Source: a virus
Lineage: Duplodnaviria > Heunggongvirae > Uroviricota > Caudoviricetes
Length of the DNA: 64,000 bases
IMG/VR virus record: IMGVR_UViG_3300001282_000006
Strand: one strand, 5' to 3'
Numbering within the stretch: the stretch's first letter is position 1; each line of letters begins with the position of its first letter. The notes under the pieces are model-generated. The model was not told the origin of the DNA. It made no database searches and was given only the letters and a program-made list of their open reading frames with translations. Positions 54,019 to 57,513 of this stretch are shown piece by piece. The position numbers and the translations under genes were made by a program.

Positions 54019-54423
54019 ATGACACTGAAAGAAAAAATCAACGCAGACTTTATGACAGCATTTAAGTCTAAGAACATGGTAGCAAAAAGCATACTATCTG
54101 TTGTTAAAGGAGAAATTCAAACTGTAGAAAAGAATATTGGTTCTGATAATCTTTCAGATGTTGAGGTAACTAAAATTCTTACAAAAACTGTAAAGTCTCT
54201 TAAAGAAACTATTACATTAAGCAATGACGAAAAATCTAAAGTAGAATTGTCAGTAATTGAAGTTTATCTTCCAACACAAATGTCTAAAGAAGAAGTTACA
54301 GCTAAAGTAACAGAACTTGTTAATTCTGGAATCACACAAATCGGTGCTATTATGAAAGAATTCGCAACTCTTCCAGCTGATAAGAAAATGGTTTCTGAAT
54401 CAATCAAAGAAGTTATTAAGTAG
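54019..54423 (+). CDS. GatB/YqeY-domain protein.
   Basis: MTLKEKINADFMTAFKSKNMVAKSILSVVKGEIQ fits the YqeY family pattern. Confidence 0.7.
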   Translation: MTLKEKINADFMTAFKSKNMVAKSILSVVKGEIQTVEKNIGSDNLSDVEVTKILTKTVKSLKETITLSNDEKSKVELSVIEVYLPTQMSKEEVTAKVTELVNSGITQIGAIMKEFATLPADKKMVSESIKEVIK

Positions 54424-55767: not shown

Positions 55768-55799
55768 AGTCCGAACTTCAAAAGAGTTCGGATTTTTTG
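55768..55799 (+). terminator. Rho-independent terminator immediately preceding the tRNA cluster.
   Basis: gtccgaact-tcaaaag-agttcggattttttg. Confidence 0.7.
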
Positions 55800-55808
55800 T
55801 TTTTATAT

Positions 55809-55894
55809 GGTGTCGTTATTGTTAATGGAGAATCGAAAGATGAGCATTTAACTCTGTGAAAGTTAAGGTACGGGTTCGAATCCCGTACGACACC
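55809..55894 (+). ncRNA. tRNA-like element with canonical acceptor and T arms. The D and anticodon region is atypical or carries an insertion.
   Basis: GGTGTCG...GTACGGGTTCGAATCCCGTAC-GACACC. The internal region does not fold as a standard D or anticodon arm. Confidence 0.3.
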
Positions 55895-55973: not shown

Positions 55974-56050
55974 CGGAGTCCTGAGATAAACAGGAGACCC
56001 CCACTCCCATATGGCAGTCAGTCCGGTAATCTGATGAAGTGGGGTATTAT

Positions 56051-56201: not shown

Positions 56202-56207
56202 CAACAT

Positions 56208-56278
56208 ACGTCATACAGACAAGGTGTCGGTCAGGTCTCCAAAACCTCGACGGTGGGGTTCGATTCCTCAATGGCGTG
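56208..56278 (+). tRNA. tRNA-Trp(CCA).
   Basis: ACGTCAT..AGGT-CTCCAAA-ACCT..TGGGG-TTCGATT-CCTCA-ATGGCGT-G. The acceptor stem pairs along its full length. Confidence 0.55.
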
Positions 56279-56376: not shown

Positions 56377-56449
56377 GATTCCGTAGCTCAATCGGTGGAG
56401 CTTCCGACTTTTAATCGGAAGGTTGTGGGTTCGAACCCCACCGGGATCA
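56377..56449 (+). tRNA. tRNA-Lys(UUU).
   Basis: GATTCCG-TA-GCTCAATCGGTGGAGC-T-TCCGA-CTTTTAA-TCGGA-AGGTT-GTGGG-TTCGAAC-CCCAC-CGGGATC-A. Confidence 0.75.
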
Positions 56450-56463
56450 CTAAAAACACAAAT

Positions 56464-56546
56464 GATCCTGTCGCTTAGCGGCTATAGCAACTGGCTTTTA
56501 ACCAGTAGATTAATTTCAACCGTGGGTTCGAGTCCCACCAGGATCA
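56464..56546 (+). tRNA. tRNA-Lys-like paralogue (UUU anticodon as read) with a 15-nt variable region.
   Basis: GATCCTG..ACTGG-CTTTTAA-CCAGT-AGATTAATTTCAACC-GTGGG-TTCGAGT-CCCAC-CAGGATC-A. Confidence 0.45.
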
Positions 56547-56555
56547 CTAAGTAAT

Positions 56556-56638
56556 GCGTCTGTCGCTTAGTGGCTATAGCAACTGGCTTTTAACCAGTAG
56601 ATTAATTTCAACCGTGGGTTCGAGTCCCACCAGACGCA
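56556..56638 (+). tRNA. Tandem near-identical copy of the previous tRNA with a different acceptor stem (GCGTCTG/CAGACGC).
   Basis: The body is identical to 56464..56546 except for one D-loop base. All seven acceptor-stem base pairs are replaced. Confidence 0.45.
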
Positions 56639-56645
56639 CAAAATT

Positions 56646-56729
56646 GATTCCGTCGCATAGCGGCGATTGCGCCAGACTCTTAATCTGATGATGAAAAGTC
56701 CACCGTGGGTTCGAGTCCCACCGGAATCA
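56646..56729 (+). tRNA. tRNA-Lys-like paralogue (CUU anticodon as read) with an expanded variable region.
   Basis: GATTCCG..CAGA-CTCTTAA-TCTG..GATGATGAAAAGTCCACC-GTGGG-TTCGAGT-CCCAC-CGGAATC-A. Confidence 0.4.
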
Positions 56730-56738
56730 CAAAAAATG

Positions 56739-56879
56739 GAGAGAGTAGCTCAGTTGGTAGAGCACGTTATTATACTCTGATAAGTATTCTCTGATTACGG
56801 TTAACGTAATTAGTAGTGATGTTAAGAGTTACTTCGGCTGTTAACCGCGTGGTCGTAGGTTCGAGTCCTGCCTCTCTCC
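56739..56879 (+). tRNA. tRNA gene interrupted by a ~65-nt insertion (putative small intron). A possible anticodon arm CGG-CTGTTAA-CCG gives GUU/Asn.
   Basis: Canonical GAGAGAG-TA-GCTCAGTTGGTAGAGC 5' part and GTAGG-TTCGAGT-CCTGC-CTCTCTC-C 3' part, separated by extra sequence containing AGAGTTACTTCG. Confidence 0.4.
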
Positions 56880-56945
56880 CTAGTTATGAGACTGTTTAGA
56901 ATTTTATCGACTTGGCACTTTTCAAGTAACGTAATAAATTCATTT

Positions 56946-57073
56946 GGGGATGTAGCTCAGTGGTAGAGAAAACTATCTCTTTTGAAATTTTACCTCGTAA
57001 GAGTGTTGATTGAGAGAGTTACTTCGTATATTTTGAAATTATAAGGTCGTTGGTTCGAATCCAACCATCCCCA
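56946..57073 (+). tRNA. tRNA gene interrupted by a ~55-nt insertion related to the one in 56739..56879.
   Basis: GGGGATG-TA-GCTCAGTGGTAGAG...GTTGG-TTCGAAT-CCAAC-CATCCCC-A. The insert contains GAGAGTTACTTCG and a duplicated TTTTGAAATT. Confidence 0.4.
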
Positions 57074-57116
57074 CAAAAAAAGAAGAATAAAAAATTAATA
57101 TATAACAAATAAGATT

Positions 57117-57194: not shown

Positions 57195-57214
57195 TATTCA
57201 AATAAGATATTAAA

Positions 57215-57251
57215 GAAACCCTTCGAACATCAGTTTGAAGGGTTTTTTGTT
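57215..57251 (+). terminator. Rho-independent terminator between tRNA sub-clusters.
   Basis: aaacccttc-gaacatcagttt-gaagggttttttg. Confidence 0.7.
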
Positions 57252-57338: not shown

Positions 57339-57422
57339 GGAGAGGTAATTTAGCTGGCGCTAAAGCTAGTCTTGAAAACTAGTCGTACCTACGGGTATGG
57401 GGATCGATACCTCACCTCTCCG
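57339..57422 (+). tRNA. tRNA-Ser(UGA), class II.
   Basis: GGAGAGG..CTAGT-CTTGAAA-ACTAG, long variable arm CGTACCTACGG, TGGGG-ATCGATA-CCTCA-CCTCTCC-G. Confidence 0.65.
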
Positions 57423-57427
57423 CAACC

Positions 57428-57513
57428 GGAAGGAGTCCGAATGGACGAGGACACCGCCTTGAAAGCGGCTGGGTCGAAAGGCTTTGGGGGTTCGATTCCC
57501 TCTTCTTCCGCCA
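57428..57513 (+). tRNA. Second class-II tRNA with a UGA anticodon (Ser) and an encoded 3' CCA.
   Basis: GGAAGGA..CCGC-CTTGAAA-GCGG, long variable arm, GGGGG-TTCGATT-CCCTC-TTCTTCC-G-CCA. Confidence 0.55.

Follow-up and report, generated by a model that had tools for sequence, protein, structure and literature searches.

The 64,000-nt stretch of viral DNA analysed here (the window; IMG/VR record IMGVR_UViG_3300001282_000006, Caudoviricetes) carries four tandem tRNA-Lys genes, referred to as t1 to t4, of which the last three combine a lysine anticodon with an unusually long variable region. The genes lie in a block of about 15 tRNA genes; nine tRNAs are called by ARAGORN in the window, all on the + strand between 55.9 and 57.7 kb. 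ARAGORN and the Rfam tRNA model (RF00005, gathering score 29 bits) agree on the four lysine genes and on the canonical nature of the first, as proposed in the first-pass annotation of this DNA, and the ARAGORN calls reproduce the anticodons given there, UUU in t1, t2 and t3 and CUU in t4.

In the ARAGORN calls the genes occupy 74 nt (t1, 56377-56450), 84 nt (t2, 56464-56547; t3, 56556-56639) and 85 nt (t4, 56646-56730), with spacers of 7–14 nt, and CCA is encoded by none of them. All four have helices of 7/5 pairs (acceptor/T), seven standard acceptor pairs and G18G19 in the D loop, and their RF00005 alignments all span model positions 1-71, with the extra 10-11 nt of t2-t4 placed in the variable region. 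The T arm reads GTGGG/TTCGAGT/CCCAC, and the T-arm sequence noticed at first pass, GTGGGTTCGAGTCCCAC, is indeed common to t2, t3 and t4. These three genes have a 3-bp D stem with a 13:22 mismatch, and the additional arm is inserted between position 44 and the last four nucleotides of the variable loop. The acceptor stem is GAUCCUG/CAGGAUC in t2 (anticodon 56497-56499; fold z = -3.27) and GCGUCUG/CAGACGC in t3 (anticodon 56589-56591); in t4 (anticodon 56679-56681), which has a C27.A43 mismatch, the 5' acceptor strand GAUUCCG is that of t1. The discriminator is A73 in t2, t3 and t4.

By ARAGORN, by Rfam and by R1, a covariance model of the class II-like lysine tRNAs that is described below, t2-t4 score neither as pseudogenes nor as ordinary leucine or serine tRNAs and are intact, if unusual, phage-borne tRNA-Lys, as first thought; R1 aligns t1 only with the variable-region helix deleted. 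An ordinary tRNA-Leu or tRNA-Ser obtained by another fold was considered and rejected, as all three methods place the triplet UUU or CUU within an anticodon loop of 7 nt and no alternative fold gives a leucine or serine anticodon; a disguised Leu or Ser tRNA was rejected too, since A73 excludes serine and the genes have G15:C48 instead of the A15:U48 of leucine. The genes are very probably genuine, selected tRNA-Lys genes of a long-arm family.

Table 1. Lysine tRNA genes of the window, their variable regions and adjoining features
Feature	Position	Strand	Evidence and remarks
t1, canonical class I tRNA-Lys(UUU)	56377..56449	+	5-nt variable loop AGGUU, A73; Rfam 71.4 bits, R1 54.4 bits
t2, long-variable-arm tRNA-Lys(UUU), 'type A' body	56464..56546	+	Rfam 62.3 bits, R1 87.0 bits
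t3, long-variable-arm tRNA-Lys(UUU), 'type A' body	56556..56638	+	Rfam 64.6 bits, R1 87.1 bits
t4, long-variable-arm tRNA-Lys(CUU)	56646..56729	+	Rfam 53.7 bits, R1 79.6 bits
Variable region of t2, AGAUUAAUUUCAACC	56507..56521	+	1 nt, degenerate stem-loop (G-C, A-U, U.U), AACC tail
Variable region of t3, identical to that of t2	56599..56613	+	Sequence comparison
Variable region of t4, UGAUGAAAAGUCCACC, 16 nt	56689..56704	+	1 nt, GAU/GUC stem (G-C, A-U, U.G), GAAAA loop, CACC tail
Predicted intrinsic terminator	55768..55794	+	Consensus scan; just 5' of the tRNA block, likely start of the tRNA transcription unit
Predicted strong intrinsic terminator	57213..57248	+	Consensus scan; 16-bp stem and T run; closes the block with the four Lys genes
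YqeY/GatB-like protein beside the tRNA array	54019..54423		Pfam 2e-15; PHROG 'tRNA amidotransferase'

Structure and covariation of the extra arm

A long variable arm is reserved in textbooks for the tRNAs of leucine, serine, bacterial tyrosine and selenocysteine; since the anticodons here are those of lysine, we call t2-t4 class II-like and do not file them as class II. Their variable regions of 15, 15 and 16 nt exceed the ~10-nt class II limit. The length of 15 nt initially assigned to all three is correct for t2 and t3, but t4 had been mis-registered, its variable region being UGAUGAAAAGUCCACC and not GATGATGAAAAGTCC. The accompanying statement that the region is not a class II hairpin is accurate thermodynamically for the window copies, which in isolation fold at 0.0 kcal/mol (RNAfold) and, in the case of t2 and t3, form a 2-bp GA/UC helix in context; it misses, however, that the layout of one nucleotide, a short stem-loop and a 4-nt tail (AACC or CACC) is shared with relatives that have clear hairpins. 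Those relatives have, at this site, a strongly covarying hairpin of 2-5 bp followed by a 3' tail that is conserved; the long variable region of the window genes is therefore best regarded as a decayed class II-type arm, which in this lineage appears to have been eroded to two or three weak pairs.

Among 94 unique long-arm tRNA-Lys sequences collected, an arm hairpin is predicted in 81%, with a mean arm energy of -3.3 kcal/mol versus -0.5 for shuffled sequences. The arm loops are often GNRA-like, and most 3' tails read (C/A)A(C/U)C; one subtype of the family has an unstructured region of 11-13 nt, UAUACAAACAYC. Many members have UG at positions 8-9, and the D arm is class II-like. In a seed alignment of 18 sequences the five-helix structure is 96.4% paired, each of the three modelled arm pairs is double-changed in 4-10 sequences, the covariation score of the whole structure is higher than in any of 500 shuffles, and slid controls collapse. 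This seed had been hand-picked for one arm length, hence the covariance model R1 was built and applied to 90 loci outside its building set, which yielded 127 matches; ARAGORN called 99 of these as Lys, and 104 were distinct. Among the distinct sequences pairing in the arm amounts to 92.4%, and its three pairs show 29, 44 and 36 double changes; family-wide, the helix is 92-94% paired. The alignment, being made by R1, leans towards the structure of the model, and slid controls again collapse.

Distribution in phages and cellular genomes

To collect the family, IMG/VR was searched with a pattern consisting of a lysine anticodon loop followed, at class II distance, by a GTRRGTTCRA T arm, and isotypes were assigned by ARAGORN. 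About 45 long tRNA-Lys were confirmed among the first 120 IMG/VR loci listed, and a much stricter pattern matched at least 120 viral contigs, many of them 100-620 kb in length. In 185,579 bacterial and archaeal species, represented by one genome each, the strict pattern gave 69 loci, of which ~58 are long-arm tRNA-Lys, almost all within arrays of 10-31 tRNA genes per 8 kb; the archaeal matches are intron-containing genes. These counts are among the matches listed and are biased by the patterns, which require CTTTTAA and a T arm of the GTGGGTTCRA type. Within the cellular set, ~35 species-level metagenome-assembled genomes (MAGs) of Acidobacteriaceae/Terracidiphilus (L127-L194) contain a near-identical 88-nt long-arm tRNA-Lys in arrays of up to 31 tRNAs per 8 kb, which suggests a single mobile tRNA array spreading through that bacterial family. 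Two Actinomycetota MAGs harbour a 91-nt class II-like tRNA with a four-base UUUA anticodon by ARAGORN (L131, 3289-3379; L186, 6113-6203), solitary on large contigs.

BLAST searches identified cultured carriers, in which the gene is annotated as plain tRNA-Lys: phiCbK-like Caulobacter phages, Brevundimonas phages, Mesorhizobium phage Cp1R7A-A1, Rhodobacter phage RcXuper, Xanthomonas phage X1 and Ruegeria phages. The only two lysine tRNAs of Caulobacter phage CcrRogue are both long, and tRNA-Asn genes of 86-88 nt occur in phiKZ-like Pseudomonas phages, Cp1R7A-A1 and X1. The long tRNA-Lys and tRNA-Asn of cultured phages belong to the same family as t2-t4, with lengths of 86-90 nt, the same arm layout and a CACC or CAUC tail; they differ in having at most 72-78% identity to the window genes, U73 in several cases, and stable hairpins in place of the eroded arms of the window.

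Arms of at least 10 nt are also present in other isotypes of phages and arrays, namely Thr(UGU), Asn, Ile(UAU), Trp, Cys, Met, Gly(UCC) and Glu, and many tRNA-Leu calls in the same loci (L003-L288) have short variable loops, so that class I grades into class II, and class II into class I, among the tRNAs of phages and arrays. Among unique viral Ile(UAU) genes in the loci collected, 12 of 18 are long-armed. Long-armed tRNA-Ile(UAU) of 90-94 nt with the conserved loop motif CCAGAUUAG are located in many loci, for example at L076 6917-7007, L100 8593-8686, L109 8921-9011 and L157 4036-4128.

The long variable region thus defines a very large tRNA family of phages and mobile elements, a point that the first-pass annotation had missed. 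tRNA finders label its members 'tRNA-Lys' and do not flag the class II-like structure. A full-text literature search found no description of long-armed tRNA-Lys or tRNA-Asn in phages or arrays, which is not proof of novelty, and the phiCbK genome paper does not mention its long tRNA-Lys.

Orthologues and the divergence of t2 and t3

Of 50,697 phage records, just two match the DNA of the window substantially, the uncultured phage genomes LR745206.1 (634,780 bp) and LR756502.1 (642,428 bp); the window is therefore a fragment of a huge phage. Both genomes (loci L001 and L002, respectively) have the array order of the window, Phe-His-Phe ... Lys x3-4 ... Arg-Ser. Their long lysine tRNAs have arms of the forms C-GAGA-GAGA-UCUC-CAUU, C-GAG-UUUU-CUC-AAUC, C-GAC-GAAA-GUC-CACC (in the L001 orthologue of t4), C-UACC-GAAA-GGUA-CAAU and A-GGAU-UUAU-AUCC-CAUC. 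Syntenic orthologues also exist in IMG/VR contigs of 135-476 kb, with the set of four lysine genes in contigs L026 (476 kb) and L287 (135 kb), the latter ~90% identical to the window over the region.

There are seven differences between t2 and t3. Their bodies are alike except for one D-loop base (56479 C versus 56571 T), as originally described, and the other six differences fall at acceptor positions 2-4 and 69-71; a placement of at least six of seven differences within the 14 acceptor positions has a hypergeometric P of 5e-5. The description of every acceptor pair as swapped was too broad, since just pairs 2:71, 3:70 and 4:69 differ, all by compensatory change, and pairs 1, 5, 6 and 7 are unchanged. 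Nor do the genes appear to be a recent pair diverged in the acceptor only, because both copies already exist in L287, where they match the window in acceptor type and in the C/T difference of the D loop; the duplication and the divergence of the acceptors are therefore older than the separation of L287 from the window. The L287 orthologue of t1 differs from t1 at one site, that of t2 has the GAUCCUG acceptor of the window but a full 19-nt arm with a 4-bp stem, AGAGAUAAUGUUCUCAACC, which is also found in L026, that of t3 has the acceptor GCGUCUA/UAGACGC, with one further compensatory pair, and a short 15-nt arm, and that of t4 shows a compensatory T-stem pair (G-C to A-U). The short arm of t2 in the window was acquired later, by conversion from t3 or an equivalent deletion. 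Given the 19-nt arm of t2 and the 15-nt arm of t3 in L287, the identity of the two bodies in the window in part reflects homogenisation or deletion of the variable region; gene conversion was rejected as the sole cause, as it explains the shared short variable region and not the invariance of the body across genomes.

The body common to t2 and t3, designated 'type A', was found in eight genes. These come from six genomes, whose identity to the window is otherwise 72-92%, and the body exists with UUU and with CUU anticodons. Positions 8-43 differ by 2.7% per site, the differences being confined to one D-loop position and the wobble base, and the T arm by 0%; in the acceptor stems 39% of sites differ, always with pairing retained, and the arms come in four versions. 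The suspicion of unusual acceptor-stem evolution was thus well founded for this type of gene. In the neighbouring array tRNAs (Phe, His, Arg, Ser and class I Lys) acceptor and internal divergence are 0.16 and 0.15, and the contrast in rate between acceptor and body is real and specific to 'type A'. It may result from diversifying selection on pairs 2-4 and 6-7, or from an unread acceptor stem together with unusually strict constraint on the body. An acceptor-stem-directed nuclease as the cause of the t2/t3 divergence is pure conjecture.

Amino acid identity

Lysine identity in Escherichia coli resides in the three anticodon bases and A73, acceptor pairs being outside the identity set of class II lysyl-tRNA synthetase (LysRS), and the class I LysRS uses U35 and U36 with a marginal role for A73; leucine identity involves A73 with A15:U48 and D-loop features and has no anticodon requirement, serine identity involves G73, and tyrosine identity A73 and U35 (PMC9976931). 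With UUU or CUU, A73 and G15:C48, the window genes present the full lysine set and neither the leucine nor the serine set. There is no sign that t2 and t3 are charged by different synthetases, as had been suggested from their acceptor stems, both having the complete class II LysRS identity set of UUU and A73 (PMC9976931).

Across the family the discriminator is A73 in 48 of 76 members and U73 in 26. Among the cultured-phage examples U73 is restricted to alphaproteobacterial phages (three of four, Rhodobacter phage RcXuper having A73), and the Xanthomonas phage has A73. Alphaproteobacteria commonly use a class I LysRS, and the hypothesis that U73 marks hosts with this enzyme is suggestive only. 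Long-arm Asn tRNAs keep the asparagine hallmarks U1-A72 and G73. The long-arm UUU and CUU genes of a phage are each other's nearest relatives, and within a locus the nearest relative of a long-arm Lys gene is another long-arm Lys gene in 27 cases and a class I Lys gene in eight, with no near-identical Tyr, Ser or Leu gene for any of them in the same loci. A recent anticodon switch from a class II gene was rejected on these grounds.

A compact class II LysRS of 378 aa is encoded in a related 636-kb phage, LR756504.1 (tblastn with E. coli LysS; TIGR00499, 341 bits), where its gene (L126, 3180-4316) is embedded among four tRNA-Lys genes, one long-armed copy adjoining it; the LysS query was confirmed by 95%-identical matches annotated as lysyl-tRNA synthetase. 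Taken together, the lysine identity set, the long-arm Asn analogues, the kinship of the isoacceptors and the LysRS of LR756504.1 make lysine acceptance the most economical reading, and t2-t4 are probably charged with lysine.

Possible function

The suggestion at first pass that these genes belong with phage tRNAs that resist host nucleases fits the published context. tRNA-Lys(UUU) is a target of PrrC and RloC, of AriB of the PARIS system, which cuts between positions 40 and 41, and of the bacterial Schlafen RorSlfn5; AriB also attacks Thr(UGU) and Asn(GUU), its recognition involves contacts outside the anticodon stem-loop, and phage T5 needs its own variant Lys, Thr and Asn tRNAs to escape PARIS (PMC11464382, PMC12409363). 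All three isotypes, Lys, Thr(UGU) and Asn, are among those with long arms in the phages considered here. At the AriB site, U36-A-A-U39-C40|A41, t2 and t3 read U-A-A-C39-C40-A41 and have lost U39; t1 (UAAUCG) and t4 (UAAUCU) keep U39-C40. The only modes of phage escape that we know of so far are point changes in the anticodon arm and repair enzymes.

We propose, with a probability of about one half for the reading as a whole, that t2-t4 are working lysine isoacceptors of a class II-like family whose architecture evades host nucleases directed at tRNA-Lys. They would be transcribed with the canonical t1 in a terminator-bracketed tRNA operon of a huge phage with a G+C content of 30%, processed, provided with CCA post-transcriptionally, charged with lysine by LysRS via the anticodon and A73, and used to decode AAA and AAG, AAA being the top codon of the window. 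The non-canonical body, with its extra arm and its altered D arm and anticodon stem, would be a poor substrate for PrrC, RloC, PARIS AriB and Schlafen, and translation of the phage would go on after the host pool of tRNA-Lys has been cut. That the arm itself exists for the sake of evasion, as an escape at the level of architecture, is a more tentative proposition, somewhat less probable than the reading as a whole.

Several points weigh against this proposal. PrrC, RloC, AriB and Schlafen all cut the anticodon arm, for which the extra arm is no obvious block, and 13 of 76 family members retain the AriB site U39-C40-A41 in the form seen in E. coli. Isotypes that are not known as nuclease targets (Ile-UAU, Trp, Cys, Met) have long arms too, and the trait may have a more general cause. 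The arm in the window is the weakest of the family (0.0 kcal/mol), and its erosion is awkward if the arm is the functional point. The MFE (minimum free energy) fold of t4 alone is not a cloverleaf, as the anticodon arm competes with the variable region, although the covariance models still score t4 as a full tRNA. A73 and U35 together with a tyrosine-like arm also fit the critical determinants of tyrosine. Class IIb synthetases approach the tRNA from the side of the variable loop, and tolerance of the extra arm by LysRS is assumed.

The strongest competitor, though an unlikely one, is plain codon supply, with the arm a tolerated historical insertion that has no function of its own and the acceptor differences due to neutral compensatory drift. 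AAA is the commonest codon of the window (6.4%), and the AAA:AAG ratio of 4.5:1 parallels the 3:1 ratio of UUU to CUU copies; the window arm is degenerate, one subtype of the family has an unstructured region of 11-13 nt, and acceptor pairs are not read by LysRS. Against this, the pairing of the arm is kept by compensatory change in more than 100 sequences and its 3' tail, (C/A)A(Y)C, is conserved, and selection on the arm is therefore indicated; the trait is nearly absent from cellular chromosomes outside arrays, which is unexpected for a neutral variant, and the contrast between acceptor and body (39% versus 0-2.7%) is not seen in neighbouring tRNAs. Supply alone accounts for the copy number, but neither for the architecture nor for the restriction to mobile elements.

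Somewhat less likely again, the arm could serve as a handle for a phage-encoded partner, be it a LysRS of the phage, a modification or repair enzyme or a protective protein, resulting in a private supply of lysine tRNA that is independent of host enzymes. The LysRS among the four lysine tRNAs of LR756504.1, one of them long-armed, speaks for a handle, as do a non-discriminating aspartyl-tRNA synthetase beside the tRNA array of the related LR745206.1 (L294, 475-1839; NCBIfam, 474 bits) and the YqeY/GatB-like protein beside the array of the window, and the invariance of the 'type A' body across genomes suggests sequence-specific recognition. However, no LysRS was detected in the 64-kb window (Pfam, tblastn) or within several kilobases of any other of ~290 loci (tblastn), a scan of IMG/VR for relatives of the phage LysRS matched only the LR756504.1 genome itself, and the free variation in arm sequence speaks against recognition of the arm by its sequence. 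Phages of the phiKZ-like and phiCbK-like groups, which have long Asn or Lys tRNAs, are to our knowledge not known to encode aminoacyl-tRNA synthetases, which also disfavours a handle.

Long-arm tRNAs might instead act as decoys, titrating nucleases or sensors directed at tRNA-Lys as uncleavable look-alikes. Several copies with the same anticodon arm and different acceptor stems, and the position of tRNA-Lys recognition as a hub of defence in the PARIS/Schlafen literature, are compatible with this, but the acceptor helix, the discriminator and the tertiary nucleotides of the T and D loops are fully conserved, as translation demands, and the published mechanism of T5 is replacement of the cleaved tRNA, not titration (PMC11464382, PMC12409363); we consider decoys improbable.

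Marginally less probable still is recoding or mischarging, in which a class II scaffold with A73 and U35, the critical determinants of tyrosine, would recruit tyrosyl- (TyrRS), leucyl- (LeuRS) or seryl-tRNA synthetase (SerRS), and lysine codons would partly be read otherwise. The arm of bacterial tRNA-Tyr (E. coli, Bacillus subtilis) consists of one nucleotide, a 3-bp stem and a 3-4-nt tail, as in long-arm Lys, and the likeness to class II tRNA-Tyr of bacteria extends to A73, U35, the 3-bp D stem and an arm of one nucleotide, a stem-loop of 3-4 bp and a 3-4-nt unpaired tail, with UG at positions 8-9 in many members and the class II-like D arm as further points of agreement. The anticodon, however, is UUU or CUU and not GUA, and identity to the Tyr genes of the same phages is at most ~0.6. 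Precedents for a class II scaffold with the anticodon of a class I isotype are the nev-tRNAs of nematodes (PMC3333845) and allo-tRNAs (PMC5389517), which are charged by LeuRS or SerRS whatever the anticodon; the window genes are without serine or leucine determinants and keep the lysine set. An allo-tRNA identity was rejected, since it requires 8/4 or 9/3 helices and all four genes have 7/5. Recoding is further opposed by the full lysine anticodon, the strongest LysRS determinant, by the Levitt pair G15:C48 (not the leucine A15:U48) and a discriminator other than the serine G73, by the lack of any member close to a Tyr, Ser or Leu gene and the behaviour of the UUU and CUU genes as an isoacceptor family, by CcrRogue, whose sole Lys tRNAs are long-armed, by the asparagine elements of the long-arm Asn tRNAs, and by the linkage of LysRS, not TyrRS, in LR756504.1. 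Mischarging with tyrosine seems to be the one rival for identity that the sequence by itself leaves standing. Decaying duplicates with junk insertions, for which the weak variable stems of the window and the non-cloverleaf MFE fold and C27.A43 mismatch of t4 could be cited, may be dismissed: the helices are unbroken, the scores of 54-65 bits exceed the threshold of 29, and the genes are conserved in relatives, with compensatory changes in close ones and a body invariant across six genomes.

The closest parallel for the putative nuclease-evading lysine supply is the tRNA-Lys(UUU) of T5 (Burman et al. 2024, PMC11464382; Belukhina et al. 2025, PMC12409363), likewise a phage isoacceptor kept alongside the host tRNA-Lys, with Lys, Thr(UGU) and Asn involved in both systems and t2 and t3 also being without U39, which AriB requires. 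In T5, tRNAs of ordinary class I form escape by point changes to the anticodon stem, whereas in the window genes the whole architecture is altered by the extra arm and the class II-like D arm. Dense arrays of redundant, divergent tRNAs with a proposed anti-defence role have been described as tRNA array units (Tran et al. 2016, PMC4758250) and on Mycobacterium avium plasmids (PMC12803027), and arrays of this kind are where the cellular long-arm tRNA-Lys genes are located; class II-like Lys tRNAs are not reported in these papers, and the window block of ~15 genes is below the array-unit definition of 20.

More speculatively, and slightly less likely than evasion by the arm itself, phages and mobile tRNA arrays might keep a parallel 'class-switched' set, with class II-like Lys, Asn, Thr(UGU), Ile(UAU) and others and short-armed Leu, in which the altered architecture is an adaptive disguise or a private label. 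If so, the element could go on translating in the face of host immunity directed at tRNAs, or rely on enzymes of its own such as the LysRS within the tRNA cluster; class II tRNA-Lys would constitute a natural class of tRNA that is new and confined to mobile elements, and the rule that a long arm denotes Leu, Ser, Tyr or Sec would fail in the virosphere. A large, conserved and covarying long-arm Lys family, with Asn, Thr and Ile counterparts, that is confined to phages and mobile tRNA arrays would be a new exception to that rule, likely with a biological reason. As tRNA-Lys is a favourite target of anti-phage nucleases (PrrC, RloC, PARIS, Schlafen), the family bears on that field, on escape at the level of architecture and on orthogonal tRNA scaffolds for engineering, and its culturable carriers (phiCbK, phiKZ-like, Mesorhizobium and Xanthomonas phages) are suited to the study of tRNA shape in nuclease and synthetase recognition.

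Other features of the window

The open reading frames of the window include an NAD-dependent DNA ligase, a sigma factor, an SbcC-like ATPase, proteins with collagen repeats and lectin-like proteins, and many ORFans. The consensus scan found nine terminator-like sites, versus 2.2 expected.

Several further tRNA-like sequences lie in the block. At 55810-55894, ARAGORN missed a His(GUG)-like tRNA of 85 nt whose D region is expanded; Rfam matches only part of it (27.4 bits) and R1 scores it at 30.6 bits. A stretch of ~70 nt between tRNA-Phe and tRNA-His (55975-56045), unusually long for a tight array, has no tRNA or Rfam call. Also missed by ARAGORN was a Trp(CCA)-like tRNA (56207-56278) with an intact 7-bp acceptor stem and an aberrant D arm, which has a weak Rfam tRNA-Sec match (27.3 bits) and is syntenic with the tRNA-Trp of L001, L026 and L287. 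Other weak Rfam matches (YrlA, Plastid-ycf2 on the opposite strand, and others) were rejected as tRNA-shaped chance matches far below their gathering scores.

Two tRNA genes downstream of t4, 56739-56879 and 56946-57073, match the Rfam tRNA model (42.4 and 45.3 bits) only when ~68 and ~56 extra nucleotides, respectively, are skipped in the region of the D and anticodon arms. Both inserts contain GAGTTACTTCG, and that of the second gene has UUUUGAAAUU, an anticodon-loop-like motif, twice. The genes may be intron-like or rearranged; group I introns were rejected, the inserts being far too short. The stretch 56735-57090 is ~99% identical to L287, with flanks at ~90%.

Two class II tRNAs follow at 57339-57421 and 57427-57510, for which the best Rfam alignment is to tRNA-Sec (gathering score 47; 46.7 bits for the first and 38.7 for the second). 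With its long acceptor helix, a D stem of 6 bp and the anticodon loop CUUGAAA, corresponding to Ser(UGA), the first resembles the 8/4 'allo-like' Ser tRNAs of bacteria and phages (Mukai et al. 2017, PMC5389517).

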